Assembly (NCBI GenBank): GCA_038046665.1
Contig: JBBSVS010000089.1
Location: 1-28,200 of the forward strand
DNA from: Thermoplasmatota archaeon
GTDB lineage: Archaea > Thermoplasmatota > Thermoplasmata > RBG-16-68-12
Direction of reading: 5' to 3'
Length of the DNA: 28,200 nucleotides
Both the position numbers and the translations under genes were made by a program. Below, in pieces: positions 5,572 through 24,088 of the stretch (position 1 is its first letter; each line of letters begins with the position of its first letter). A model generated the notes under the pieces. It ran no database searches and was not told the DNA's origin. It saw only the letters and a list, made by a program, of their open reading frames with translations.

Positions 5572-5668
5572 GAAATGTCCGGCGCCGCGCTATCGACGCG
5601 GAGAGCTGCACCCTTGACTTTTAATAGAGCCAGAGCTTAGTCCGACCTACCACAAGACGGTGGAAGGC

Positions 5669-6931
5669 ATGCCGGGGCAAACGATTGTAGAGAAGATTCT
5701 ATCCCGCGCCTCTGGTCGTCCCGTTCTCGCGGGCGACATCACGATCGCCAAGGTCGACCTGGCGTATGTGCAGGATGGGACCGGGCCCCTCACGTTCCGC
5801 ATGATGGAGAAGATGAACCTCGTCAAGGCCGCGAACCCCTCGCGGTCCGTCGTGTTCATCGACCACTCGAGCCCGCCGCCTCGGAGGGAGCTTGCGACGG
5901 ACCACGTGTACCTGCGGGAGTTCGCCGCGAAGACCGGAATGGTCCTCTCCGACGTCGGGCAGGGGGTGTGCCACCAGGTGGCCTTCGAGAAGTTCGTCCG
6001 CCCGGGCGATGTGGTCATCGGCGCCGATAGCCATTCCGTGATGGGCGGGGCCATGGGCGCCTTCGCCACGGGCATGGGATCGACCGACGTGGCGGTGGCC
6101 CTAGCCCTCGGGAAGACCTGGCTCCGCGTGCCCGAGACGATGAAATTCGACGTTGGCGGCAAGTTCCCCAAGGGCGTCTACTCGAAGGATCTCATCCTCA
6201 GGATCATCGGGGACATCAAGACGGACGGCGCGACGTACAAGGCCATGGAATGGGGCGGGCCCGCGTGGTCGTCCATGCCCATGACCGAACGCATGGTCCT
6301 CTCGAACATGGCCATCGAGGCGGGCGGCAAGTGCGGGCCGCAGCCCTCGGACCGGGAGACGAAGCGGTACCTGAAGGAGCATGGGCGGGAGACGGACTGG
6401 AAAGAAATCGAGCCCGATTCAGACGCCGCGTACGAGAGCGTGGCCCACTACGACGTCGGCGAGCTGGAGCCCATGGTGGCCCGCCCGCCTCAAGAGGACA
6501 ACGTCGTGCCCGTGACCGATCCGAGCGTGAAGGGGCTCAAGATCCACCAGGTGTACCTGGGCTCCTGCACGAACGCGCGGTACGAGGACATCCAGGTCTT
6601 CTGCGACTACATGAAGGGCGAGAAGGTCGCGAAGGGCACACGCCTCATCGTCGTGCCGGCCTCCAAGGAGTCCTACGAGAAGTCCCTGAAGAACGGCCTC
6701 TTCGAGATCCTCCTCGACGCGGGGGCGACGATCAACCCGCCCGGCTGCGGCGCCTGCCCGGGCGTACACCAGGGGATCCCCGGGGACGGGGAGAACGTCC
6801 TGTCCACCACGAACCGCAACTACGTCGGGCGCATGGGCAACCCCGCGGCCTTCACCTACTTGGCCTCGCCCGCCACCGCGGCGGCCACGGCCATCTATGG
6901 CATAATCACGGACCCACGGGAGGTGAAGTGA
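5669..6931 (+). CDS. leuC: LeuC/HacA-family aconitase-superfamily large subunit (isopropylmalate/homoaconitate/aconitate hydratase)
   Basis: QD, DH, GVCHQ, GADSHS, GSCTN, PGCGAC (three Fe-S cysteines), STTNRNYVGRMG, YLASPATAAA. The ATG at 5669 follows GGTGGA; an alternative GTG lies at 5660. Confidence 0.9.
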   Translation: MPGQTIVEKILSRASGRPVLAGDITIAKVDLAYVQDGTGPLTFRMMEKMNLVKAANPSRSVVFIDHSSPPPRRELATDHVYLREFAAKTGMVLSDVGQGVCHQVAFEKFVRPGDVVIGADSHSVMGGAMGAFATGMGSTDVAVALALGKTWLRVPETMKFDVGGKFPKGVYSKDLILRIIGDIKTDGATYKAMEWGGPAWSSMPMTERMVLSNMAIEAGGKCGPQPSDRETKRYLKEHGRETDWKEIEPDSDAAYESVAHYDVGELEPMVARPPQEDNVVPVTDPSVKGLKIHQVYLGSCTNARYEDIQVFCDYMKGEKVAKGTRLIVVPASKESYEKSLKNGLFEILLDAGATINPPGCGACPGVHQGIPGDGENVLSTTNRNYVGRMGNPAAFTYLASPATAAATAIYGIITDPREVK

Positions 6932-7428
6932 TGGGGCGCGCCTGGAAGTTCGGGGACAACATCTCCACGGACCTCATCGCCGCCGGACGGTACTACCACC
7001 TGCGCTCGAACCTGCCCGAGCTCGCGAAGCACGTCCTCGAGGACGCCCGCCCGGAGTTCGCGTCCCAGGTCAAGCAAGGGGACTTCGTCGTGGGCGGACG
7101 AAACTTCGGCAAGGGCTCATCCCGCGAGCATGCGCCGGTGATCATCAAGCTCGCGGGCACACGGGCCGTGCTCGCCAAGTCCTTCGCGCGCATCTTCTAC
7201 CGCAACTGCATCAACATCGGTCTTCCCGCAATCGTCGTGGACACGGACAAGATCGACGAGGGGGACGACCTGGACATCGACTTGGAGAAAGGCGTCGTGC
7301 ACGACCGGACGAAGGGGATCGAGCTGACGTTCCCGCCGCTGCCCGCCGTGATGGCCCGCATCCTCGAGGAGGGCGGGCTCGTGGACTACGTCAAGAACCA
7401 CGGCGACCTCGTCATCGCCGGGACGTGA
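6931..7428 (+). CDS. leuD: LeuD/HacB-family small subunit
   Basis: MGRAWKFGDNISTD, NFGKGSSREHA, SFARIFYRNCINIGLP, ILEEGGL. The ATG shares its A with the leuC TGA. It is the C-terminal part of track ORF 6250..7428. Confidence 0.9.
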   Translation: MGRAWKFGDNISTDLIAAGRYYHLRSNLPELAKHVLEDARPEFASQVKQGDFVVGGRNFGKGSSREHAPVIIKLAGTRAVLAKSFARIFYRNCINIGLPAIVVDTDKIDEGDDLDIDLEKGVVHDRTKGIELTFPPLPAVMARILEEGGLVDYVKNHGDLVIAGT

Positions 7429-7466
7429 GCCCATGGTCCCCGTCGCGACTTGGGGAGGCCTGTGAC

Positions 7467-8633
7467 ATGGGGACGAGTGCGAAGCCGACCCTGGAGACCC
7501 CTCCCCGGATCGACAAAGGGCTGGACGACATCTACGTGAAGGAGACGTCCATCTGCTTCGTCGACGGACAGCGCGGACGTCTCCTGTACCACGGCTACGA
7601 CATCCGCGACCTCGCGCAGTACTCGACCTTCGAGGAGACCGTTTTCATCCTCATCCACGGCAAACTCCCGAACCGCGAGGAGCTCACCCAGGTGAAGACG
7701 ACCCTCGCGGAGAACCGTGCGATCTCGCCGGAAGTCGTGAAGCTCCTGCGGTGCATGCCTCCGGACGCGCCGCCCATCGACGTGCTGCGGACGGCGGTGT
7801 CCTACGTCAGCAACTACGACCCGGAGCGGGACGACCCCACGCGGGCCGCGAACATGCGCAAGGCCCAGCGGCTCATCGCCAAGTTCCCCACCCTGGTGGC
7901 CGCCCACCACCGCATCCGCCAGGGGATGAAAGTGGTCCCGCCCGACCCCACCTTGGCCCATGCGGAGGACTTCCTCCGCATGCTCACGGGAAAGAAGCCC
8001 GACCCGCTCTCCGCGCGGGTCCTCGACGTCGCCCTCATCCTGCACGCGGACCACAGCATGAACGCATCCGCCTTCGCAGCCACCGTGGCCGCGTCCACCC
8101 TCGCGGATCTCTACAGCACGATCGTCGCGGCAATCGCGGCGCTGAAAGGCCCGCTCCACGGCGGCGCGAACGAGGCCGCTCTGAAGACGATGCTCGTGAT
8201 CGGCAAGCCGGAAAATGCGGAGGCCTACGTCCTGGACACGTTGAAGAACCACGGCAAGGTCTTCGGCTTCGGCCACCGCGTCTACAAGACCTGGGACCCG
8301 CGGGCCCTCATCCTGCGGGAGTACGCGAAGCAGCTCAGCGAGCTTAAGGGCCAGCAGGAGCTGTTCCACATCTCCGAGGTCGTCCAGGACACGGTCGTGC
8401 GGGAGCTGCAGTCCAAGCACATCTACCCGAACGTGGACTTCTACTCCGGCCTCGTGTACCATCTCCTGGGCCTGCCCACGGACCTCTTCACCCCGACCTT
8501 CGCGGTCTCCCGTATCGCAGGCTGGACTGCGCACGTCATCGAATACTGGGAAGACAACCGACTCGTGCGGCCGCTGGACTACTACGTCGGCCCGACGGAC
8601 GCGGTGTACGTGCCGCTGGACCAGAGGCCCTGA
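7467..8633 (+). CDS. gltA: Citrate synthase (type I dimeric; 2-methylcitrate synthase activity not excluded)
   Basis: KGL...GRLLYHGYDI, HADHSMNASAF, LKGPLHGGANE, GFGHRVYK...DPRA, YPNVDFYSG. The ATG at 7467 follows GGAGG. Confidence 0.92.
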   Translation: MGTSAKPTLETPPRIDKGLDDIYVKETSICFVDGQRGRLLYHGYDIRDLAQYSTFEETVFILIHGKLPNREELTQVKTTLAENRAISPEVVKLLRCMPPDAPPIDVLRTAVSYVSNYDPERDDPTRAANMRKAQRLIAKFPTLVAAHHRIRQGMKVVPPDPTLAHAEDFLRMLTGKKPDPLSARVLDVALILHADHSMNASAFAATVAASTLADLYSTIVAAIAALKGPLHGGANEAALKTMLVIGKPENAEAYVLDTLKNHGKVFGFGHRVYKTWDPRALILREYAKQLSELKGQQELFHISEVVQDTVVRELQSKHIYPNVDFYSGLVYHLLGLPTDLFTPTFAVSRIAGWTAHVIEYWEDNRLVRPLDYYVGPTDAVYVPLDQRP

Positions 8634-8695
8634 GGCGCATGCGTACGTACACCAGCCTTAAGTCCGAAAACCTCTGTTGACGCGGCGGTGTCTCT

Positions 8696-9952
8696 GTGCC
8701 CACCGAGCAGCTCCGGCTCAAACCCCCTTCCAGCGGCCACAAGATCCTGATCACCGAGAAAGGGATCCTCGTCCCCGACGACCCCATCGTCCCGATCATC
8801 GAGGGCGATGGGATCGGACCGGACGTGACGCGCGCCGCGCGATCGGTCATCGACGCGGCCGTCGAGACGACCTTCCATGGGAAGCGGCGAATCGTCTGGT
8901 ACGACGTGCCCGCCGGCGAGACGGCGATGTTCCGCTACGGGGACATGCTGCCGCCGGCGACCCTGGGCGCGATCAGGGAGTACGTGGTCGCGCTCAAGGG
9001 TCCCCTGACCACGCCGGTGGGCGGCGGCTTCCGCTCCCTGAACGTCACCCTGCGCCAGACCCTCGACCTGTACGCCAACGTCAGGCCGATCTACTGGATG
9101 CCGGGGGTGCCCAGCCCCGTCACGCACCCAGAGCGGCTCGACATCGTGATCTTCCGGGAGGCCGAGGAGGACGTCTACGCGGGGATCGAATGGGCGGAGG
9201 GCTCCGCGGAGGCCAAGCGGATGATCTCCCTGCTCAAGGAGCAGTTCAACGTCCGCGTGCGGGACGACAGCGGGATCGGCGTGAAGCCGATCAGCGAGTG
9301 GGAGTCCAAGCGCCTCGTGCGCAAGGCGATCCGCTTCGCGATCGAGAACAACCGCAGATCCGTGACCCTCGTCCACAAGGGGAACATCATGAAGTACACG
9401 GAGGGCGCGTTCCGCGAGTGGGGCTACGAGCTCGCGCGGGAGGAGTTCCAGGACCGGACGATCACCTGGGACGAGGTCCTGGAGAAGCACGACGGCAAGG
9501 CGCCGGAGGGCAAGGTCGTGATCAAGGACGTCATCGCGGACAACATGTTCCAGCAGCTCCTCCTCCGGCCGGACGAGTACGACGTCCTCGCGACGACGAA
9601 CCTGAACGGGGACTACCTGAGCGACGCGGCGGCGGCGCAGGTGGGCGGTCTCGGCGTGGCCCCGGGCGCGAACATCGGGGACGCCCACGCCCTCTTCGAG
9701 CCCGTCCACGGGAGCGCGCCGAAATACGCGGGGATGGACAAGGTCAACCCGACCGCGGAGATCCTCGCGGGCGTGATGATGCTCGAGTACCTCGGATGGA
9801 AGGAGGCGGCCGCGCGCCTGCGCGAGGCGGTGAAGGTGACGATCGCCTCCAAGGTCGTCACCTACGACCTCGCGCGACAGATGCCGGGCTCCAAAGAGGT
9901 CGGCACGACCGCCTTCGCGAACGCAATCATCGAGCGGCTGCAGGCGGCCTGA
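8696..9952 (+). CDS. icd: NADP-dependent isocitrate dehydrogenase (E. coli/archaeal subfamily I)
   Basis: [73 protein letters not shown]-like box at 8657-8662. Confidence 0.95.
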
Positions 9953-9954
9953 CG

Positions 9955-10380
9955 TTGGCCAAGGCCCGCGCAGCCCACGGCACGGAGTCCGACCTGGAGC
10001 TCAAGGTCTGCGAGGAGATGGGCCGCCAGGGAGTGGTCCATGAGCACCGCTCGCTTCACTTCCGGGTGCGGCTGCCGAGCGGCGACGTGGCCGAGTACGA
10101 GCCGGACATCGTCGCGCGGCGTGGACCCATCCTCTTCCTCCTCATCCACCTCGAAAACGCCCAAGAAATTCCGAGGCAGAGGGAGTTCCTGAACAACTTC
10201 CTCGAGCAGCATTCGCCGGAAATCGTGCTCATCCTCATCGCTCCGCCGGAGGCACTCAGGGAGCTGCCTCCCGAAATCTACGACGAGGTCTACGCGGCCA
10301 CGGACATCGGGCGTGTGGTTCGGCGGATCCGCGATCAGGATCCGAACGGGATAATCCGTCCCTTCGTCAAGCCGCAATAG
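9955..10380 (+). CDS. Uncharacterised protein with restriction-endonuclease-like (PD-(D/E)xK) pattern
   Basis: A TTG 2 nt after the icd stop opens 141 codons with host-like codon use. ESDLE...YEPDIV resembles the E...YxPD core, but the expected (D/E)xK position reads HLE. Confidence 0.6.
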   Translation: MAKARAAHGTESDLELKVCEEMGRQGVVHEHRSLHFRVRLPSGDVAEYEPDIVARRGPILFLLIHLENAQEIPRQREFLNNFLEQHSPEIVLILIAPPEALRELPPEIYDEVYAATDIGRVVRRIRDQDPNGIIRPFVKPQ

Positions 10381-11567: not shown

Positions 11568-13670
11568 GTGCCGCTGCCGGCGTGCGACCCCACGGGGACC
11601 GTGCCGTGCCGCACGAACCTCAGCTTACTGCCGGATTGGACGCTCCTCGCCCTGTGGGCCGTCACCGCCGTGGCCGTCGCCTTCACGGCCTACGGGCTAT
11701 TGACGCGGTGGAAGGTGTGGAAGCAGGGCCCCGCAGGCTCCACGGGCGCATCCTTCTGGCTGCACCTGCAGCAGCTCCTCGTCGTCGGGATACTGCAAAA
11801 GAAGGTCGCGCAGCGCCGCTACGCGGGCGTGATGCACGTCCTGATGTACACGGGCTTCATCGCTCTCGGGATCGGCACCACGATCGTGTTCGTCAACATG
11901 GACATCACGGCCCAGGTGGACCTGGACATCCTCCGAGGCAATCCCTACCTCCTGTTCGAAGCCGCCCTGGAGTTCATGGGCCTCGCGTTCATCGTCGGCC
12001 TGGGGATGGTGTTCTACCGACGGCTCGCGGCCCGCCCCAAGTACCTGCGGAACGAGCGGCCGGACCTGTTCCTCCCGGGCATCCTCCTGCTCCTCATGCT
12101 CCAGGGCTACCTGCTCGAGGCGATTCGCCTCGCGGTCCTCCAGCCGAAGTGGGAGGAGTGGTCCTTCTTCGGGTACTTCCTGTCCCTCGGGCTGCGGGGC
12201 CTCGGGATCGATGAGACCCTAGCCACCGTCGCGGTGAGCGGCGGCGGGTCTGTCGTCACGATCACGCCCGTGCCGGCCCTGGCCTGGGGCTACGGAATCC
12301 TGTGGTGGTTCCACGCGGGCACGTGGTCCGCCATGCTCGCGACGCTACCGTGGACGAAGGCGAGCCACTTCCTCTTCAGCCCGGCGAACACGTTCTTCGA
12401 GCGCGCGCTCCCGTATGGCAAGCTGCCGACGGTCTTCGACATCGATGCGATGATGCAGGAGGGGGCCGCGCAGCCCATGATGGGCGCCGCGACGACGAAG
12501 GCCTTCTCCTGGTTCGACCGCCTCCAGCTCGACGCGTGCACGATCTGCGGCCGCTGCACGTCCGTTTGCCCCGCGTGGACCACGGGGAAGCCTCTGGATC
12601 CCATGCGCGTAATCCTCGACCTGCGGGAGGCGATGACGAAGGAGGCGAAGGGCGTGACCCTGGGGGAGCCGCTCCCGGACTTCGTCGGGTACGAGGAGCT
12701 CTTCGCCTGCACCACGTGCGGGGCGTGCATGCAGGAGTGCCCGGTGTCGATCCGCCATGTCCCCTTCATCGTCGAGCTGCGCCGCAACTTCGCCATGGAG
12801 CTCGGGAGAATCCCTGAGGAATCCCAGGGCATGCTGCGGAACATCGAGACGAACTACAACCCCTGGGGCATCGGATGGGACCAGCGGGGGAACTGGGCCG
12901 CGGGGATGGGCGTCCGCACGCTCTCCGAGGCCGTGGCCGCGGGCGAGGCCGTCGACGTGCTGTACTGGGTCGGCTGCGCCGCCTCCTTCGACGACCGGAA
13001 CAAGAAGGTCGCCCAGAGCTTCGCGCGGCTCCTGCAGAGGGCCGGCGTGCGCTTCGCAATCCTCGGGCCGGAGGAGAAATGCACAGGCGACCCGGCGAGG
13101 CGCCTCGGGAACGAGTACCTCGCGCAGAGGATGATCAAGGCGAACGTGGAGACGCTGAACCGGTATGCAGTCAAAACAATCGTCACCGCGTGCCCCCACT
13201 GCTTCAACACGCTGAAGCACGAGTATCCGGACTTCGGCGGGAGCTACGAGGTCATCCATCATTCCGTCTTCCTGGACGGGCTGCTCAAGCAGGGGAAGCT
13301 CAAGCCGACGAAGGAGGTCGAGTCGTTCCTGACGTACCATGACGCCTGCTACCTCGGGCGGTACAACAAGGTGTACGACGAGCCGCGGGATGTGCTCCTG
13401 CGCATCCCGGGCGTCCGCACGGTGGAGATGAAGCAGTGCCGGGAGAAGGGGTTCTGCTGCGGGGCCGGCGGCGCGCGCATGTGGATGGAGGAGAAGGTCG
13501 GCGAGAAGGTCAACCACCGCCGCCTCGACCACGTCGCGGAGACGGGGGCGAAGGCCGTGGCCTCCGCGTGCCCGTACTGCTTGATCATGATGGACGACGC
13601 GGCGAAGACGAAGAACCGGGAGGACATCGCCCGCGAGGATATCGCGGAGATCCTCGAGAAGTCCCTCTAG
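11568..13670 (+). CDS. Membrane-bound Fe-S oxidoreductase, FadF / ETF:menaquinone oxidoreductase-like (NarI-like membrane domain, 2x[4Fe-4S], two CCG domains)
   Basis: TM domain with conserved His (GVMHVLM, WWFHA, KASHF), CTICGRCTSVCP and CTTCGACMQECP, then WVGC...EKCTGD...TACPHC and YHDACYL...CCGAGG...SACPYC. SD GGAGGTG upstream. Confidence 0.88.
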   Translation: MPLPACDPTGTVPCRTNLSLLPDWTLLALWAVTAVAVAFTAYGLLTRWKVWKQGPAGSTGASFWLHLQQLLVVGILQKKVAQRRYAGVMHVLMYTGFIALGIGTTIVFVNMDITAQVDLDILRGNPYLLFEAALEFMGLAFIVGLGMVFYRRLAARPKYLRNERPDLFLPGILLLLMLQGYLLEAIRLAVLQPKWEEWSFFGYFLSLGLRGLGIDETLATVAVSGGGSVVTITPVPALAWGYGILWWFHAGTWSAMLATLPWTKASHFLFSPANTFFERALPYGKLPTVFDIDAMMQEGAAQPMMGAATTKAFSWFDRLQLDACTICGRCTSVCPAWTTGKPLDPMRVILDLREAMTKEAKGVTLGEPLPDFVGYEELFACTTCGACMQECPVSIRHVPFIVELRRNFAMELGRIPEESQGMLRNIETNYNPWGIGWDQRGNWAAGMGVRTLSEAVAAGEAVDVLYWVGCAASFDDRNKKVAQSFARLLQRAGVRFAILGPEEKCTGDPARRLGNEYLAQRMIKANVETLNRYAVKTIVTACPHCFNTLKHEYPDFGGSYEVIHHSVFLDGLLKQGKLKPTKEVESFLTYHDACYLGRYNKVYDEPRDVLLRIPGVRTVEMKQCREKGFCCGAGGARMWMEEKVGEKVNHRRLDHVAETGAKAVASACPYCLIMMDDAAKTKNREDIAREDIAEILEKSL

Positions 13671-15462: not shown

Positions 15463-16431
15463 TCAGGCCTTGAGCTCCTTGATCACTGCGGGCAGGAGCT
15501 GCAGCACGTTGGCCACCACGCCAATGTGGGCGACCTCGAAGATGGGCGCGGTCGAGTCCGTGTTGATCGCCACGATGAGACCGGAGTCCTTCATGCCCGC
15601 CACGTGTTGCATCGCGCCGCTGATCCCGCAGGCCACGTAAAGCTTCGGCCGCACGGTCTTCCCGCTCTGGCCGACCTGCCGCGTCTTGGGCAGCCACTCC
15701 ATGTCCGTGAGGGGCCGGGACGCGCCGACGACGCCGCCGAGGAGCTTCGCAAGCTCCTCGATGAGCGGGAGGTTCTCCTTCTTCTGGATGCCGCGTCCTG
15801 CGGACACGATCACGTCCGCGGAGGCGAGGTCGATGTCGGAGACCTGGGGGCGCTCGAGGCCGAGGCATTTCGTGCGCACCTTCGACGCGTCGACGGACGC
15901 GGGGACGCGGTTGACCGCGCCCCCCGGAGCGGGCTCGGCGGGCTTCACGGTCCCCGGCCGCAGGGTGACCACGAAGGTCTTGTCCGAGGCGATATCGAAT
16001 TCACCCTGGATCTTCTCGTTGAGGAGGCGGCGCGTCGCGACGAGCTTGTCGCCTTCGAGGCGGATGTCCACCGCGTTCGTGACGAGGGGGAGGTTCGCGA
16101 GACCCGCAATCCCGGGGGCCACGTCGTAGCCTTGGGCTGTGTGGGCCACAAGGAGGACGCGCGGTGCGTGGCCCTCCAGGAGGGCGACTGCCGTCTGCTC
16201 GTACCCGCCGTCCGTGTACTCCGCGAGGGCGGGGTCGTCCACAAGGAGGACCTCGAGGCCGTACCCCGCCAAACCCTGGGCCAAGCTGCCGGCGTTGTGG
16301 CCCAGGAGCGCGGCCTTGAGGACACCCCCCGACTGCGCGGCCAGCTCCCGACCTTTCGCGACGAGCTCGAACGTGGACGGGGCCAGTTTCCCCTCGAGGT
16401 GCTCCGCCAGGATGAGGATGTCGTGGCCCAC
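15463..16431 (-). CDS. etfA: Electron transfer flavoprotein alpha subunit
   Basis: LASADVIVSAGRG, VGASRP, RQVGQSGKTVRPKLYVACGISGAMQHVAGM, AINTDSTAPIF. Confidence 0.95.
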   Translation of the reverse strand: MGHDILILAEHLEGKLAPSTFELVAKGRELAAQSGGVLKAALLGHNAGSLAQGLAGYGLEVLLVDDPALAEYTDGGYEQTAVALLEGHAPRVLLVAHTAQGYDVAPGIAGLANLPLVTNAVDIRLEGDKLVATRRLLNEKIQGEFDIASDKTFVVTLRPGTVKPAEPAPGGAVNRVPASVDASKVRTKCLGLERPQVSDIDLASADVIVSAGRGIQKKENLPLIEELAKLLGGVVGASRPLTDMEWLPKTRQVGQSGKTVRPKLYVACGISGAMQHVAGMKDSGLIVAINTDSTAPIFEVAHIGVVANVLQLLPAVIKELKA

Positions 16432-16435
16432 GGCA

Positions 16436-17233
16436 TCACCTCCTCACGAAGCCTTTCTCGCGCAGCAACCGGGCGAGCGTCTTCGCCTGCTCCTCGAGGG
16501 AACCTGAGATCATCTCCGCGTGGTCCTGCGCCCCGGGCGGGGCCAGGCCGCGCACCGCGAACGTGTACGGCAGGGCGACGGCTTCCCACGACGCGAAGCC
16601 GAGGGCCGCGGGCGCGATCTCCTTGATGGGCACGCGGGCCGCCCTCATGATCGCCGGGAGCGGCGCGTACCGCGGGATGTTCGCGCCGAACTGGATGGAG
16701 AGGAGGGCCGGCAGACCCACGGAGTACTTGCGCTGGAGCCCGCCCTCGAGCTCGCTCCAGGCCTCGAGGGTGGCGCCCTGGACCTGGACCTTCGTGACGA
16801 CGCTCACATGGGGCAGGCCGAGCAGGCCCGCGACGAGACCGCCCGTCGCAGAGTTGCTGTAGTCGTCCGACTGCACGCCCGTGAGCACGAGGTCGTGGGG
16901 GATCGTCTTGACCGCGGCCGCGAGAATCCGCGCGACCTTGCCCACGTCGAAGGCCGCGGGGTCGTCGTAGGCCACGCGCACCGCCTCGTCGGCGCCTTTC
17001 GCGAGGGCTTCCCGCAGCATGGACTCCGCGCGCTTCGCGCCGATGGTGATCGCGACGACCCGCCCCCCGTTCTTCTCCTTGAGGCGCACGGCCTCCTCGA
17101 GGGCGTACTCGTCGGAGCCGTTGATCTTGTAGTTGAGCCCGTCCCGCTTGATGTCGAGGCCGTCCGGCGCGACCTGGAATTGAAGGTCGGGGTTGGGGAT
17201 CTGCTTCAGGCAGACGACGATGTTGAGCGCCAT
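16436..17233 (-). CDS. etfB: Electron transfer flavoprotein beta subunit
   Basis: IVVCLKQIP, DEYALEEAVRLKE, REALAKGAD, LVLTGVQSDD...TGGLVAGLLGLP, PRYAPL. TATA GATTAAATAG at 17267-17258. Confidence 0.95.
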   Translation of the reverse strand: MALNIVVCLKQIPNPDLQFQVAPDGLDIKRDGLNYKINGSDEYALEEAVRLKEKNGGRVVAITIGAKRAESMLREALAKGADEAVRVAYDDPAAFDVGKVARILAAAVKTIPHDLVLTGVQSDDYSNSATGGLVAGLLGLPHVSVVTKVQVQGATLEAWSELEGGLQRKYSVGLPALLSIQFGANIPRYAPLPAIMRAARVPIKEIAPAALGFASWEAVALPYTFAVRGLAPPGAQDHAEMISGSLEEQAKTLARLLREKGFVRR

Positions 17234-17992: not shown

Positions 17993-19255
17993 CTACGGGT
18001 AGATGCCGCGCCACTTGTACGCTTCCGCGACGCGGTTGATCGCGACCATGTAGGCCGCCTGGCGCATGTCGATCTTCTTCTCCTCGTGCATCTTCCAGAC
18101 CGCGTCGAAGGCCCGGACCATGACGCCCTCGAGCTTGGCGTCGACATCGGACTTCGTCCAGAAGAAGTTCGCAAGGTCCTGGACCCACTCGAAGTACGAC
18201 ACGGTCACGCCGCCGCCGTTGGCGAGGATGTCCGGGATCACGAAGACGCCCTTCTTGTAGAGGATGTCGTCCGCCTCGGGGGTCGTCGGGCCGTTCGCGC
18301 CCTCCGCGCTGACCTTGGCCTTGATGCGGGGCGCGTTCTCCGACGTGATGGCGCCCTCGAGGGCACAGGGCCCGAGGATGTCGACCTGGAGTTCGAGGAG
18401 CTCCTCGTTGGTGATCTTCTTGGTGCCGGGGAAGCCGACGACGGACCCGGTCTTCTCCTTGTAGGCGAGGACCTCCTTGGGGTCGAAGCCCTTCTCGCTG
18501 TAGATACCGCCCTTGCTGTCCGAGACGGCGACGATCTTGGCGCCGAGCTCGTCCTGCATCAGGCGGGCGTAGTGGTGCCCTACGTTCCCGAAGCCCTGGA
18601 CGGCCACGGTCGCACCCTTCACGTTGAGCCTGATCCGCTTGCAGGCCTCGCGGGTCGCGTACATGAGCCCGCGGGAGGTTGCCTCGTCGCGGCCGAGGGA
18701 ACCGCCGATCGGGACCGGCTTGCCCGTGACGACGCCAGGGACGGCGAAGCCTTTGTGCATGGAGATCGTGTCCATGATCCAGGCCATCGTCTGGCTGTCC
18801 GTGTAGACGTCCGGTGCGGGGATGTCCTTCTCGGGCCCGATGATAATCGAGATCTCGGAGGCGTACCGGCGGGTCATGCGCTCGAGCTCGCCCTTCGACA
18901 TCTCCTTGGGGTTGCAGATGACGCCGCCCTTGGCCCCGCCGTAAGGGATGTCCATAACGGCGCACTTCCAGGTCATCCAGCAGGCGAGGGCCCGGACCTC
19001 GTCGATGGATACGTTCCAGTGGTAGCGGATGCCGCCTTTGAAGGGGCCTCGGGCATCGTTGTACTGCACGCGGTATCCGGTGAACACCTTGACGCTCCCG
19101 TCATCCATCTTGACGGGGAAGTTCACCGTGAGTTCGCGCTTCGGGTGCTTGAGGAGCCCCAGGAGCCCTGGGTCCAGATTCAGCTTCTTCCCGGCCCGGT
19201 CGATCTGCTCTCGGGCCACCACAAAAGGGTTCAAAGATTCCTTCGGTTTCGGCAT
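17993..19255 (-). CDS. gdhA: Glutamate dehydrogenase (Glu/Leu/Phe/Val family)
   Basis: RGPFKGGIRY, MTWKCAV...YGGAKGG, DIPAPDV, VTGKP...GGSLGR, VQGFGNVG, AEGANGP, PDILANGGGVTVSYFEWVQ. The ATG at 19255 follows GGAGGTG; TATA TTTAAA at ~19317-19322. Confidence 0.95.
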   Translation of the reverse strand: MPKPKESLNPFVVAREQIDRAGKKLNLDPGLLGLLKHPKRELTVNFPVKMDDGSVKVFTGYRVQYNDARGPFKGGIRYHWNVSIDEVRALACWMTWKCAVMDIPYGGAKGGVICNPKEMSKGELERMTRRYASEISIIIGPEKDIPAPDVYTDSQTMAWIMDTISMHKGFAVPGVVTGKPVPIGGSLGRDEATSRGLMYATREACKRIRLNVKGATVAVQGFGNVGHHYARLMQDELGAKIVAVSDSKGGIYSEKGFDPKEVLAYKEKTGSVVGFPGTKKITNEELLELQVDILGPCALEGAITSENAPRIKAKVSAEGANGPTTPEADDILYKKGVFVIPDILANGGGVTVSYFEWVQDLANFFWTKSDVDAKLEGVMVRAFDAVWKMHEEKKIDMRQAAYMVAINRVAEAYKWRGIYP

Positions 19256-19362
19256 AGACACACCTCCGAGTATCGAACCTCGATATCGGGAGCGGGCGCG
19301 AGTAGGTGCCTTCGCTTTTAAACCCTTTGTGCAAGTGTGTAATGTCAGGGGGTCCGACACCT

Positions 19363-20367
19363 TCATATTCCGGGGCCGTCGCGTGGCGGGCCTTGGTATT
19401 CTGTCGCATCCACCACGTGCCTCGGGGTCACGCCCTGGAGGAACCGCATCACGTTGTCCAGGGCCGCCTCCATGGAATGCGCCTTCTGCTCCGGGATCGC
19501 GAAGGCGATGTGCGGCGTCATGACCACGTTGGGCAGCTCGTGGAAGGGCCTGTGAAACGGCCGCCCGATCCTGCCCCGCGGATAGGACCACCATACGTCC
19601 AGGGCCGCGCGGAAGTTCGGGTGGGCCTTGAGGTGGTCATATAGGTCGTCCTCGACGACGATTCTCCCGCGGGCGATGTTCACCAGGACCGCATCTTCCT
19701 TCATCGCGCCGAGGATCGTGCGGTCGACGAGACCCTCCGTCTCCGCCGTCAGGGGCAGGGCGATCACGAGGGCGTCGGCGCGCGGCGCGACCCGCAGGAG
19801 ATCGTCCAAGGTGGCCCCCTCGTCCGCGGGCGGGACGACCATGCCGGACCGGGTGAGGCCGATGACCTTCGCGCGGAAGGCCTTGCAGAGGCGCGCGACC
19901 TCGGAGCCGACTCCGCCCATGCCCGCCACGACGACGGTCGAGCCGGCGAGGGCCTTGTTCATGACCTCCTGGTCGAAGGTCCCGCGCCGGATCTCGTCCG
20001 TCCGGCGGGGCACGTCCTTCGTGCCCGCGAGGAGGAGGGCCATCGCGTGCTCCGCGACGCTCGTGTTGTAGGCCCCCGCGTTACCGCACACGAGGACGGA
20101 GGGCGGGATGCGGTCGTAGGGAAGATGGTCCACACCGGCCACGAGGGCCTGGATCATCTTGAGCCTCGGCGCCTTCGCGGCCACATCCTCCGGGATCTCC
20201 GCGCCGAACCCCGAACACACGAGGACATCGGCCTGGGACCAGGCCTCGTCCCGGTGGTCCTCGGGCCGATCCTCCAGGATCACCGCGTCGAACGCACCCT
20301 TCGCCCGGGACACGAGCACGGCGCGGCGCTCCACGTCCATGGGGCAGCTGAACAGGACCGTGGCCAT
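19363..20367 (-). CDS. D-isomer-specific 2-hydroxyacid dehydrogenase
   Basis: AGVDH, NAGAY...VAEHA, GMGGVG Rossmann motif, LPLTAET, LVNIARG, ALDVW, MTPHIA (catalytic Arg/His). Confidence 0.9.
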   Translation of the reverse strand: MATVLFSCPMDVERRAVLVSRAKGAFDAVILEDRPEDHRDEAWSQADVLVCSGFGAEIPEDVAAKAPRLKMIQALVAGVDHLPYDRIPPSVLVCGNAGAYNTSVAEHAMALLLAGTKDVPRRTDEIRRGTFDQEVMNKALAGSTVVVAGMGGVGSEVARLCKAFRAKVIGLTRSGMVVPPADEGATLDDLLRVAPRADALVIALPLTAETEGLVDRTILGAMKEDAVLVNIARGRIVVEDDLYDHLKAHPNFRAALDVWWSYPRGRIGRPFHRPFHELPNVVMTPHIAFAIPEQKAHSMEAALDNVMRFLQGVTPRHVVDATEYQGPPRDGPGI

Positions 20368-20424: not shown

Positions 20425-23400
20425 TCAGCACTCGGAGTACCCGCAGGAGTGGCACTTCACGCAGCCCTCTTCGTAAATCAGGTGCTTGCCGCACTCGGGG
20501 CACTCGGGGTTAAGGCCCTTCTTGAGCATCTCTTCCGCGGACCGGGACTCCTTCTCCAGCTCCACGTCCGTCTCCACGGCACCGCCGAGCTCGTCGAAGG
20601 TCTCCACGGGCGGGACGACGCCGGACTTCTGCATCCCGATGTGCCGCTTGACCGCCTTCGCGACCGCGTCGGGGATCGAGTAGACGCGCTCGCCATGGTC
20701 CACGGCGATGCGCGGGCTGCGGATCCCCTCGAGCTGGTCGATGATCTCGTCCACGGGCACGCCGGACCGGAGGCACAGGGAGACGAGGCGGGCGATGCCC
20801 TCCGTGAAGGACGCGGTGTACCCGCCGCCGCGGCCGATCTGGGCGAAGACCTCGAACAGGCCCCTGTCGTCCTCGTTGATCGTCACGTAGAGCGCGCCGT
20901 AGCCCGTGAGAATCTTCTGCGTGCGGCCCGTAATCACGTCCGGGCGGGCCCGGGGGCGCACGGCGACCGGTTCCAGGGGAACCTGGACGGTGACCTGCTT
21001 GGGCTTCTCCTGATCCGACACGCCGATGTTCATGACCTGGTCCTCGCGGGAGCCGTCGCGGTACACGGTGATGCCCTTGCAGTGCAGCTCGTGGGCGAGG
21101 AAGTACGCCTTCTTCACATCCTCCACGGTGGCCTCGCGCGGCAGGTTGATCGTCTTCGAGACGGCGCTGTCCGTGTGGTCCTGGAAGGCGGCCTGCATGC
21201 GCACGTGCCACTCCGAGCCGATGTCGTGGGCCGTGGCGAAGACCTTCTGCCACTTCTCCGGGACCTCCGGCAGGCCGCGCGGGGACCCGTGGTTCTCGAG
21301 GATCCTCTGGACGAGGTCCTCCCGCCAGAAGCCCTCCCGCCGGGCGACCTCCTCGAAGAACTCGAGGAAGTAGGGGAGCTCCTCGCCGTCCATGACGCGC
21401 TTGTACCAGATCAGGCTGAACTCGGGCTCGCAGCCGCCGGACGTGTCCGCGATCATCGACAGCGTACCCGTCGGCGCGACCGTGGTCACGTAGGAGTTGC
21501 GCATCTTGAGCCCCGCCTCCCAGTGCCGGCTGCCCTCCCATGCGGGGTACACGCCCCGTGTGACCGCGAGCTTCTGGCTCTCGTCGTAGCCGATGTCGTG
21601 GATGAACTTCATCACCTTGCGGCCCGCCTCCACGCCCTCCGGGCTGTCGTAGGGGACCTCGAGCATGAAGAGCATGCGGGCGAAGCCCATGACGCCGAGG
21701 CCGATCTTCCGCGTGGCCTTTGTCATCTCCTCGATCTCCTTGACCGGGTAGGCATTCATGTCGATGACGTTGTCCAGTATGTGGACGCAGCTGCGGATCG
21801 AGGACTCGAGCTTATTCCAGTCCACGTCGTACTTGCCCGCCTTGGTACGGACCATGTGCCGCTCGAGGTTGATCGAGCCGAGGTTGCAGGACTCGTAGGG
21901 CAAAAGCGGCTGTTCGCCACAATTGTGCATTACTAGACAATTACCGACATAGGAGTGGGTTACGGGCTCTTCGAGATCGTACACGTCCTCCATGGCCGCG
22001 GGTTCAATCGCGGCGACCGAATCCTCGAATGTCTCGCGGTAGTAGGAATGCCCGCGCAGCTTTTCCTGCATTTCGGGCGCGACGACGTCCCCGAGGAATT
22101 CGAGCAAGCGGAGCACGTTGTCCCGGGACACATTCAACTCGAACAGTTCTCGCTGCGACCGATACTCACGAGGCTCTCCCTTGACGGTAACGTAGTAGAA
22201 CACCCGCGGAGATGCCTTCGTACGAAGGTAAATGGTGGATCGCACTCCAAGGGCTCCCAGGAGCTTCTGCACATCGTCGAGCAAGCCCCTCGAGGTCGAC
22301 GTCAGCCGCACATAAGCATTCGATCCGCGGACGAAGTTCTCCGTACCGTCGGAGCCGAAGAGCCCCTGGAGGAATCCAACCACCGCGGGAAGCGGCGCGC
22401 GGAGAACGGACTGGGGCACGCGCTTGTCGTGGCCTTGCCAAGCATCGACGCCCAAGCGCTGGAAGAACTCCACGACGTACTTAGAGTGGAACGACAGGTG
22501 GTAGACCCCGTTCTCCCGACGCACCGGGCGAATCCGTCGGCCCACGATGGCGGCCATGAAGCGCTCGACCCTCTCCATCGCAGCCCTTTCGGAAGGCGCG
22601 AAGGTGAAACCGACGCGGCAGTTTCGGTCCCCGGCGCGAAGCCACCCATCGCCAAGGAGCCAACCGAGGGCGAAACCGAGGTCCTCGGACCAACGGATTG
22701 GGAAACCGAACTGATACAAACGCCCGTTGGCGCCGCGGACCGCGTCCTTCATGCGAAACGGAAGCATGTCATTCGCGGAGAAATCGCAGGCTCCGGACTG
22801 AATCAACACTCGATCGCCGACCTCCAAGGAGTCCAGTCGGCGCCACCCCTCCGGAGTCAGGAAGCGGTGGTCCGCGGTCGCCCGCACGGAGTAACCTGAG
22901 TGGGTGACGAGTCGGCACACGGGCTTGACCCCAGTCTTCCACGCCCGCACGGCCTTCGTCTGGAGAACACCGAGGGTTAGCAAGCTTCGGCCATTTCCCA
23001 CCGACCGCACGTCAGAAACGAGATCGGCCGGGCCTCGATTCGCGAGTTCCCGAATCGGGACGAGCCCTTCGGCCGTCGCCACGAGCGTATCCCCGGTCAC
23101 GCATGGGTTCGTGGCCTCCATGAGTCCCACGTGGGGCGTCGGCTGCCGGCGGTTCGTCTCATCGATGAAGAAGAGGCCCGGCTCGCCGTTCTTCCACGCC
23201 TGGTAGGCGATCTTGTCGAAGACGTCGCGGGCGTCGAGCTGCTTGACGACCTGATGATTGCGGGGATTCACGAGGTCGTAGGAGGTCCCCGCCTTGACGG
23301 CCTCCATGAACTTGTCCGTCACCGCGACGGAGATGTTGAAGTTCGTGATCTCGGAGGTCCGGTCCTTGCAGGTGATGAACTCGAGGATGTCCGGGTGATC

Positions 23401-23973
23401 GATTCGCAGGATCCCCATGTTAGCACCCCGCCTCCTGCCGCCTTGTTTCACAGTCTGCGTGGACGCGTCGAAAATCTTCATGAAGGAGACGGGCCCGGAG
23501 GCCACGCCCATCGTCGACTTGACGAAGTCGCCCTTCGGGCGGAGGCGGGAGAAGCTAAAACCAGTTCCTCCGCCACTTTGATGGATCAGGGCCTGCTGCT
23601 TCAGCGCGTCGAAGATCCCGACGAGGCTATCGTCCACCGGGAGGACAAAACAAGCTGAGAGCTGCTGCAGGTCGAGGCCCGCGTTCATCAGCGTGGGACT
23701 GTTCGGCAGGAAATCCAGGTTGGACATGAGGCGGTAGAACCGCTTCGCGGCCTCCTCGACGCGGGCTTCGTCCCCGCCGTAGGAGCGCTCGGCCTGGGCC
23801 AGGTTCCAGGCCACGCGGGTGAAGAGCTCCTTGGGCGTCTCGATGACCTTGTTCTTGTCGTTCCGCTTGAGGTAGCGCTTCTCGAGCACGCGGAGGGCGT
23901 TCTCGGATAGCTGGGGATCGGGCTCACGCGCGAGAATGTCGATGCCCTTGGACTCGACGTTCATGTGTTCCAT
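20425..23973 (-). CDS. nrdJ: Class II adenosylcobalamin-dependent ribonucleotide reductase with intein, C-terminal TSCPD domain and zinc ribbon
   Basis: FLPNSPTL, SACFV, GGGTG, RRGANM, TNP|CGEQPL, CNLGS, GLGVMG, TVAPTGT, KTIN, KGITVYRDGSR; TSCPD region (RPDVITGRT...EVFAQIG) and CPEC...EEGC...CGYSEC. No N-terminal ATP cone seen. The ATG at 23973 follows GGAGAGG. Confidence 0.95.
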   Translation of the reverse strand: MEHMNVESKGIDILAREPDPQLSENALRVLEKRYLKRNDKNKVIETPKELFTRVAWNLAQAERSYGGDEARVEEAAKRFYRLMSNLDFLPNSPTLMNAGLDLQQLSACFVLPVDDSLVGIFDALKQQALIHQSGGGTGFSFSRLRPKGDFVKSTMGVASGPVSFMKIFDASTQTVKQGGRRRGANMGILRIDHPDILEFITCKDRTSEITNFNISVAVTDKFMEAVKAGTSYDLVNPRNHQVVKQLDARDVFDKIAYQAWKNGEPGLFFIDETNRRQPTPHVGLMEATNPCVTGDTLVATAEGLVPIRELANRGPADLVSDVRSVGNGRSLLTLGVLQTKAVRAWKTGVKPVCRLVTHSGYSVRATADHRFLTPEGWRRLDSLEVGDRVLIQSGACDFSANDMLPFRMKDAVRGANGRLYQFGFPIRWSEDLGFALGWLLGDGWLRAGDRNCRVGFTFAPSERAAMERVERFMAAIVGRRIRPVRRENGVYHLSFHSKYVVEFFQRLGVDAWQGHDKRVPQSVLRAPLPAVVGFLQGLFGSDGTENFVRGSNAYVRLTSTSRGLLDDVQKLLGALGVRSTIYLRTKASPRVFYYVTVKGEPREYRSQRELFELNVSRDNVLRLLEFLGDVVAPEMQEKLRGHSYYRETFEDSVAAIEPAAMEDVYDLEEPVTHSYVGNCLVMHNCGEQPLLPYESCNLGSINLERHMVRTKAGKYDVDWNKLESSIRSCVHILDNVIDMNAYPVKEIEEMTKATRKIGLGVMGFARMLFMLEVPYDSPEGVEAGRKVMKFIHDIGYDESQKLAVTRGVYPAWEGSRHWEAGLKMRNSYVTTVAPTGTLSMIADTSGGCEPEFSLIWYKRVMDGEELPYFLEFFEEVARREGFWREDLVQRILENHGSPRGLPEVPEKWQKVFATAHDIGSEWHVRMQAAFQDHTDSAVSKTINLPREATVEDVKKAYFLAHELHCKGITVYRDGSREDQVMNIGVSDQEKPKQVTVQVPLEPVAVRPRARPDVITGRTQKILTGYGALYVTINEDDRGLFEVFAQIGRGGGYTASFTEGIARLVSLCLRSGVPVDEIIDQLEGIRSPRIAVDHGERVYSIPDAVAKAVKRHIGMQKSGVVPPVETFDELGGAVETDVELEKESRSAEEMLKKGLNPECPECGKHLIYEEGCVKCHSCGYSEC
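21922..23103 (-). mobile_element. 394-aa intein with LAGLIDADG homing endonuclease, inserted at RNR TNP|CGE
   Basis: Begins CVTGDTLV and ends VYDLEEPVTHSYVGNCLVMHN, followed by Cys+1. Two LAGLIDADG-like blocks (ALGWLLGDGWL, FLQGLFGSDGT). More A/T-ending codons than the host exons. Confidence 0.95.
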
Positions 23974-24088
23974 GGAAAGACCCTCTCCACAGGGGCTTGG
24001 ATGCTGCACAACCAAGTCGTGGACGACCATCCCTGGGGGTGAGCGCGGCGAACGGAGGGCGGGGGTATAGTTCTTTTTGAATCACCTT

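Follow-up and report, generated by a model that had tools for sequence, protein, structure and literature searches.

Which enzyme links citrate synthase to isocitrate dehydrogenase (IDH) in an archaeon whose genes for these two proteins stand directly behind a pair that resembles leuC and leuD? The question is raised by a stretch of 28,200 nucleotides, here called the window, covering positions 1 to 28,200 of contig JBBSVS010000089.1 (C89 of the source genome) from a soil/sediment Thermoplasmata archaeon of the RBG-16-68-12 lineage (GenBank assembly GCA_038046665.1). Its + strand carries four intact, consecutive genes: a LeuC/HacA-type large subunit of 420 aa comprising aconitase domains 1-3 (5669..6931; NCBIfam hacA_fam, 505 bits; IPMI_arch, 503 bits), a LeuD/HacB-type small subunit of 165 aa corresponding to aconitase domain 4 (6931..7428; LEUD_arch, 190 bits, above cut-off), a type II (Si) citrate synthase of 388 aa (7467..8633; TIGR01800, 488 bits, cut-off 421) and an NADP-dependent IDH of 418 aa with the isocitrate motif RSLN (8696..9952; TIGR00183, 630 bits, cut-off 567; NF005425, 586 bits, above cut-off). 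PF00330 and PF00694 thus occur in adjacent genes, and the subfamily models score above cut-off. The original prediction, made from the sequence without database searches, described leuC-leuD-gltA-icd as tightly linked on one strand with no leuA, leuB or lysine-pathway genes nearby, which is borne out by gaps of -1, 38 and 62 nt (the small-subunit ATG overlaps the large-subunit TGA as TGATG) and by a window in which no such genes were seen. It further proposed that the pair converts citrate to isocitrate in place of AcnA or AcnB. On the combined strength of gene context, residues and distribution, we now predict that the pair is very probably a two-subunit aconitase of the tricarboxylic acid (TCA) cycle.

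The rest of the genome leaves this step with a single candidate. PF00330 was found at only two loci, the one beside gltA-icd and one on contig C379. There, the tail of a LeuA-family gene is followed by leuC, leuD and a dehydrogenase best matched by the 3-isopropylmalate dehydrogenase model, an arrangement found again in relatives; this leuCD is the second one that the original prediction had proposed to look for. A 2-isopropylmalate synthase scoring above cut-off lies on C226. Neither AcnA, AcnB nor a single-chain aconitase was found in the genome, and AcnA and single-chain queries matched only the two LeuC loci. On both genomic checks named with it, the original prediction held up. The citrate synthase at the locus is the sole copy found, and isocitrate lyase AceA (606 bits, cut-off 562), fumarase, SdhA and a gene of the malate dehydrogenase (MDH)/lactate dehydrogenase family are present. 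Since citrate is made, two enzymes consume isocitrate, leucine is handled elsewhere and no other aconitase was found, only the pair is left as a candidate for the aconitase step. An AcnX-family large subunit on C164 (C164:5-1138, - strand; PF04412, E 4e-135) was considered and rejected as the genome's aconitase, because AcnX proteins are hydroxyproline or phosphomevalonate dehydratases (PMC8184944), and it is probably one of these. The argument from absence is weakened by the state of the source, a metagenome-assembled genome (MAG) of 1.82 Mb in 444 contigs that is 83% complete, so that absence in it alone proves little; for this reason, 38 congeneric genomes were surveyed.

Among these congeners, 11 carry the pair, 23 a single-chain aconitase and four neither (G016, 53% complete; G017, 77%; G008, 93%; G003, 94%); none carries both. 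AcnA and AcnB were found in 0 of the 38, and the pathway gap, with no other aconitase, is backed by 10 pair-bearing congeners of up to 98% completeness. The copies of the pair are 84-91% identical and lie directly upstream of gltA-icd in all 11 cases, which supplies the synteny survey that had been suggested, and a second, leucine-type LeuC is present in 10 of the 11 genomes. The single-chain enzyme of the other congeners, of about 650 aa, is of the PRK07229/TIGR01342 type (PRK07229, 867 bits, cut-off 612). Across the genus the order proD-nth-cyoE-[pair]-gltA-icd-ORF is conserved, where ORF is an open reading frame downstream of icd, and in pair-less genomes with the region on a contig, cyoE abuts gltA. 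Because the pair occupies the same slot in every pair-bearing congener, and its relatives a comparable one in other genera, this gene order is not chance.

How many independent events underlie the exclusion was judged from a tree built on proD, nth, cyoE and icd plus the ORF downstream, for the 27 rows with enough sequence and leaving out the pair and gltA; a FastTree with more rows was run beside it. The presence of the pair requires three changes on the five-gene tree (two to four across bootstraps), at least two of which well-supported branches make unavoidable; grouping the pair-less genomes in one clade is rejected (p-AU, from the approximately unbiased test, 5.8e-5). The single-chain enzymes of the genus fall into two groups on the large-subunit tree. 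A Fisher test on the 11/23/0/4 counts gives p 1e-6 but ignores kinship among the genomes; since kin are not independent, we left it unused as evidence and relied on the tree count, so that the exclusion amounts to two or three events, not 34. Most simply, either an ancestor had both enzymes or they were gained repeatedly, and one of the two was then lost, as happens to redundant genes. Three oddities met in the survey, an icd in two frames in G001 (L066), a TGA within the single-chain aconitase match of G047:C315 and a third, fragmented LeuC/LeuD/dehydrogenase set in G052:C7 (L200), are assembly errors or decay.

Residues of the large subunit were located by alignment to mitochondrial aconitase and to the isopropylmalate isomerase (IPMI) and homoaconitase (HACN) of M. 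jannaschii, together with the alignment of the clade described below. They comprise Q35-D-G-T-G, D65-H66, H102, D120-S121-H122, E217, C300/C360/C363, R383 and R388, while the small subunit carries the loop G19-R-Y-Y-H-L-R25-S-N27 and N58-F-G-K-G-S63-S-R65-E-H-A, exactly as first written (RYYHLRSN at residues 20-27, NFGKGSSREHA at 58-68). The catalytic and cluster motifs of the aconitase superfamily are all present, namely three cluster Cys, DSH, DH and GSSRE (G62-S-S-R-E). Q35, which had no part in the original argument, is the counterpart of Q72 of mitochondrial aconitase (compare QDATG in the single-chain aconitase and QDFTG in AcnA); His takes its place in M. jannaschii IPMI and HACN, and also in the leucine copy on C379, which reads MHE and has the Arg-less loop GRYLGSSD. 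Counterparts of mitochondrial E262 and C358/C421/C424 are found in the large subunit, S63 and R65 of the small subunit align with S642 and R644, and the LRSN of the loop is like the LPLRSN of the single-chain enzyme; the Arg of that motif pairs with R580, though only weakly, in a local alignment. The roles of these mitochondrial residues, in substrate binding and as the base, are established. The AlphaFold2 model of the small subunit, from a 20-row alignment, has a mean pLDDT (predicted local distance difference test score) of 59, with values below 50 over residues 8-40, loop included.

The case for citrate draws on gene context, on exclusion with the single-chain aconitase and on the large-subunit Gln, and not on the loop Arg. 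That Arg had been taken to confer tricarboxylate specificity, and it does mark a tricarboxylate substrate, but it is common to homoaconitase and does not separate citrate from homocitrate; moreover, the loop is one residue longer than the YLRT of MJ1271 to which it had been likened. The change of Cys to Lys in NFGKGSSRE, also offered as a sign, was rejected as diagnostic, the position being K, L, Q or M within the clade and I in P. horikoshii 1V7L.

Family models assign neither subunit to a named function. The large subunit falls below the equivalog cut-offs of HacA_Meth (409 bits, cut-off 550), LEU2 (402, cut-off 611) and leuC (212, cut-off 560), and the small subunit below those of leud (181, cut-off 246), HacB_Meth (145, cut-off 230) and HacB2_Meth (192, cut-off 230). 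An IPMI equivalog score alone is not discriminating, as the leucine-cluster copy on C379 also lies under the cut-offs (LEU2, 475 against 611; leud, 188 against 246). Scores against single-chain models are lower than their thresholds as well (PRK07229, 348 of 612; AcnB, 164 of 782; AcnA, 86 of 686; mitochondrial, 127 of 825), and the pair scores 52 of 1420 with the AcnD model. That the pair is a single-chain aconitase gene split in two was rejected on the basis of 35% identity and a separate tree branch.

In a 99-sequence tree, of the LeuC/HacA kind that had been recommended, the large subunits related to that of the pair form one branch (FastTree support 0.95) apart from the leucine-cluster and single-chain copies. 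V-Q-D-G-T-G is kept in the large subunits of this clade; among the 120 best small-subunit homologues, the loop G-R-[YF]-[YF]-H-L-R-S-N-L is nearly invariant, R25 is invariant, and the x of NFGxGSSRE is K, L or Q and never C. At the level of sequence, the clade is a LeuC-scaffold lineage with aconitase-type residues, and, judged from the alignments, QD[GT]TG together with G-R-x-x-H-L-R-[ST]-N identifies it. Methanoperedens-type large subunits (L092:4743-5996, L209, L216, L218, L220) read IGTSCN for the GSCTN or GTCTN of the clade, which displaces the first cluster Cys by one position. A neighbouring group (L183 of G249, L169, L172, L173, L176) has QDGT[TAS] and the loop G[KR]YKFKT, adjoins a nifV-like synthase and an IDH-family gene, and is possibly a second two-subunit type of aconitase or homoaconitase.

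Outside the genus, citrate synthase, IDH, MDH and fumarase genes are neighbours of the clade in other archaea and in a number of bacterial phyla, so the suspicion that similar pairs exist in other prokaryotes proved right. Its distribution is patchy: a small-subunit profile search of 250 other Thermoplasmatota recovered it in two or three. In G099 (1,486,778 bp) and G167, complete Thermoplasmata genomes of 1.4-1.5 Mb, gltA and the large and small subunits stand in a row with an IDH-family gene nearby, and no aconitase-family ORF longer than a LeuC was found in either. Both genomes also hold two other LeuC-type genes outside leucine and lysine clusters (L186-L189), one with HDNSA and the loop GKYTYKIM and one without an adjacent small subunit. 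The order is large-small-icd-mdh-fumA-fumB in an Acidobacteria MAG, small-icd-mdh-fumA in a deltaproteobacterial MAG and gltA-large-small-icd in WOR-3. The clade loop was present at 74 metagenomic loci. An IDH-family gene is a neighbour at 40 of them, and at 29 of the 44 where the sequence runs on for 1.5 kb or more downstream; the S-x-N isocitrate motif is present in all 40 of these neighbours and absent from the LeuB of C379. MDH (12 loci), fumA (6) and pyruvate carboxylase B (4) are further neighbours. In the Methanosarcinales, 23 of 121 genomes carry the clade and 10 others the single-chain enzyme, with no overlap; a citrate synthase is divergent from the pair in two genomes, and Methanosalsum (G411, and G326), with three LeuC-type genes, has no larger aconitase.

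Besides the incompleteness of the source genome, several observations weigh against a dedicated aconitase. The match of R25 to R580 is made via a third protein, through a weak, non-significant local alignment, and over its whole length the large subunit is nearer to IPMI and HACN (46% identity to the leucine copy) than to aconitases (35%). Two congeners of 94% and 93% completeness, G003 (L043) and G008 (L063), have gltA-icd but neither the pair nor a single-chain aconitase; they contain no aconitase of any searched type, only a leucine-type LeuCD, which reflects either an assembly gap or a promiscuous LeuCD covering the step. Five clade members (L109, L112, L132, L157, L158) have His for Q35. 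Clade members and AcnA occur together in Methanoperedens G321 and in Methanosarcinales G387 and G427 (4.1-4.2 Mb), and clade members and a single-chain aconitase in G034 and G320 of the wider order; no other LeuC was found in G320, which is 90% complete, and G378 has four LeuC-type genes. In the five genomes of coexistence, all outside the genus, the clade copies stand outside any TCA cluster. Finally, nifV-like synthases lie beside 9 of the 74 metagenomic loci, one of them above the homocitrate synthase cut-off, and may make homocitrate rather than citrate. Re-citrate synthases belong to the same family, and these neighbours may be such enzymes. The members that do not fit leave the source locus untouched and leave room for broader specificity within the clade.

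A hydro-lyase of broad specificity, of the Pyrococcus/Thermococcus type, for which the TCA step would be one of several jobs alongside homoaconitate, citraconate or isopropylmalate, differs from a TCA aconitase only in breadth and would still do the aconitase step. The pair shares its LeuC/HacA subfamily with the P. horikoshii enzyme for which a role in leucine and lysine synthesis has been proposed (PMC1963480), 1V7L is the second-best match of the small subunit in the PDB, and the stand-alone copies beside other aconitases, like the absence of another LeuC from G320, would fit a second role. However, a dedicated leucine pair in 10 of the 11 pair-bearing genomes, a source genome in which neither LysX nor LysA was found, and a loop that hardly varies across archaea and bacteria and differs from the Arg-less one of 1V7L make such breadth unlikely. 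For a homoaconitase of the lysine or coenzyme B type in an incidental TCA neighbourhood, the loop Arg would be the hallmark (YLRT in 2PKP; substrate recognition region, PMC7308503), the best NCBIfam model of the small subunit is HacB2_Meth, and nifV-like synthases flank some of the clade loci. Yet both subunits lie under the homoaconitase equivalog cut-offs, LysX and LysA were not found, as just described, the clade-bearing Methanosarcinales have another two LeuC-type genes, which suffice for leucine and coenzyme B, and this explanation accounts neither for the isocitrate motif of the neighbouring dehydrogenases nor for the exclusion with single-chain aconitase; we consider it very improbable.

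Less credible still is a 2-methylcitrate/2-methylisocitrate dehydratase of the methylcitrate cycle, with the neighbouring synthase acting as methylcitrate synthase. TIGR01800 does cover both citrate and 2-methylcitrate synthases, and the order has been described as degrading amino acids to propionyl-CoA (PMC9038741), but neither PrpD nor PrpB (best match 106 of 354 bits) was found in the genome (PrpF was not searched), the sole match to the phosphoenolpyruvate mutase family is isocitrate lyase AceA and not PrpB, and the IDH neighbour has no part in that cycle. Annotation as a second IPMI has behind it the public names of homologues and the best PDB matches, which are the M. jannaschii IPMI subunits. 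We give it next to no credence: the genome has a leucine cluster with its own leuCD on C379, in a separate clade and with the leuA/leuB linkage and Arg-free hydrophobic loop of an IPMI, whereas the pair keeps neither the His at Q35, nor the hydrophobic loop, nor NFGCGSSRE, has R25 in its loop, lies under the LEU2 and leud cut-offs and adjoins gltA and icd, not leuA and leuB.

Known systems share some features with the pair and differ in others. The isopropylmalate/citramalate isomerase of M. jannaschii (4KP1/4NQY large, 3VBA small), the best PDB match at 364 and 153 bits, shares the two-subunit build, the sizes, the cluster Cys and the GSSRE motif, but has His for Q35, the loop ARYLVYT without Arg in place of GRYYHLRSN, NFGCGSSRE in place of NFGKGSSRE and a role in leucine and isoleucine synthesis. 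The homoaconitase of the same organism (4KP2 large, 2PKP small) shares two subunits, the loop Arg (YLRT) and a tricarboxylate substrate, and differs in its His at the Q35 place, its loop, shorter by one residue, and its place in the coenzyme B pathway. The single-chain aconitate hydratase of about 650 aa (PRK07229/TIGR01342, Aquifex type; TIGR01342 is itself named putative) would catalyse the same reaction and has QDATG, LPLRSN and a Cys-free GQGSSRE, but is one chain with 35% identity to the large subunit and sits on a separate branch. Mitochondrial aconitase (1ACO, 7ACN) shares Q72, E262, C358/C421/C424, S642, R644 and, weakly, R580, yet is a 754-aa monomer of distant sequence (126 bits for the large subunit).

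Two-gene enzymes have been linked to citrate before. T. kodakarensis TK0280/TK0281 is reportedly active on both citrate and homocitrate, and DET0448/DET0449 of Dehalococcoides mccartyi, upstream of IDH, is said to have been proposed as a two-gene aconitase by context, with a Re-type partner synthase. Where clade loci include pyruvate carboxylase B, IDH, MDH and fumarase (as in L151 and L159), the genes stand in what we take to be the order of the Dehalococcoides cluster. Labelling supports the view that 2-oxoglutarate arises from citrate in Dehalococcoides (PMC2930330). P. horikoshii PH1726/PH1724 (1V7L) and TK0280/TK0281 are, like the pair, archaeal LeuCD-type heterodimers, with broad specificity (PMC1963480), but belong to a lysine/leucine cluster, and the 1V7L loop, GRYNLTKD, lacks Arg. 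In the current classification, aconitases (AcnA, AcnB, mitochondrial and cytoplasmic) are all single chains, and the LeuC/LeuD build is reserved for IPMI and homoaconitase (PMC8184944), although the likeness of LeuC plus LeuD to consecutive parts of a single-chain aconitase has been remarked (PMC3917532). A literature search whose coverage left out most subscription papers returned none on a two-subunit or heterodimeric aconitase, nor on TK0280/1, DET0448/9 or TM0291/2.

If the pair is a TCA aconitase, it would form a heterodimeric [4Fe-4S] enzyme between the adjacent citrate synthase and IDH, dehydrating citrate to cis-aconitate, which would flip and be rehydrated to isocitrate, and it would also supply isocitrate lyase. 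The large subunit would provide domains 1-3 with the cluster, and the small subunit domain 4, bearing the catalytic Ser and two Arg that bind carboxylates, placing the active site at the subunit interface. By established aconitase chemistry, C300, C360 and C363 would hold the cluster, whose fourth iron would bind substrate; S63 (equivalent to S642) would act as base and H66 (equivalent to H101) as acid, with R383, R388, R65, Q35 and the loop R25 binding the three carboxylates. A side activity on homoaconitate or other substrates would be compatible with this scheme.

Close homologues carry the public name '3-isopropylmalate dehydratase', and matches in the ESM Atlas were only to clusters named isopropylmalate dehydratase, so the labelling as a leucine enzyme that the original prediction foresaw has in fact occurred; genomes are consequently counted as being without aconitase and with surplus leucine genes. 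We lean towards the broader view that the clade is an unrecognised, citrate-specific subfamily of LeuC/LeuD-scaffold heterodimers, marked by the Gln of QDxT and the loop Arg, found in Thermoplasmatota, Methanosarcinales and numerous phyla of anaerobic bacteria, freely exchanged with the single-chain enzyme and behind many 'missing aconitase' calls. With a dedicated two-subunit aconitase, the aconitases would gain a subfamily and pathway calls would be set right; if real, the subfamily would also be a living model of the unfused aconitase ancestor. The chemistry is not new, and the idea of a two-subunit aconitase has been raised before by context; what this locus adds is that near relatives have a recognised aconitase exchanged for the pair in place, together with the two-motif signature.

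The remainder of the window frames the four genes. Upstream lie a proline dehydrogenase-like gene (proD), nth and cyoE; the 97-nt gap after cyoE (5572..5668, + strand) contains TTTTAATA, a T/A-rich box some 45 nt ahead of the large-subunit start codon and a possible archaeal promoter; a sigma-70 scan found nothing, as expected for an archaeon. Downstream are an ORF without a family, an EEP-family gene and an Fe-S oxidoreductase. The ORF, of about 140 aa (9949..10380, + strand; start not fixed, no Pfam family), directly follows icd, with which it is probably co-transcribed, and is matched at this position by a 46-59% identical frame in almost every congener, whether the pair is there or not. 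The oxidoreductase is a 700-aa, HdrD/GlpC-like membrane Fe-S protein (11568-13670, + strand), and electron transfer flavoprotein subunits and a Glu/Leu/Phe/Val dehydrogenase are also found downstream of the TCA genes (15463-17233 and 17993-19594, both - strand). At the start of the window, a 164-aa ORF without a Pfam family (327-821, - strand) probably has a homologue, lying upstream of proD, in a different family of the order (L080:155-646), and nikR (1700-2107, + strand) is divergent, within 872-2107, from a 232-aa membrane protein whose HSYDADH motif gives it a resemblance to nickel/cobalt transporters. Towards the other end, a class II (B12) ribonucleotide reductase of 1201 aa (20425-24030, - strand) is split by a LAGLIDADG intein at approximately residues 310-705.

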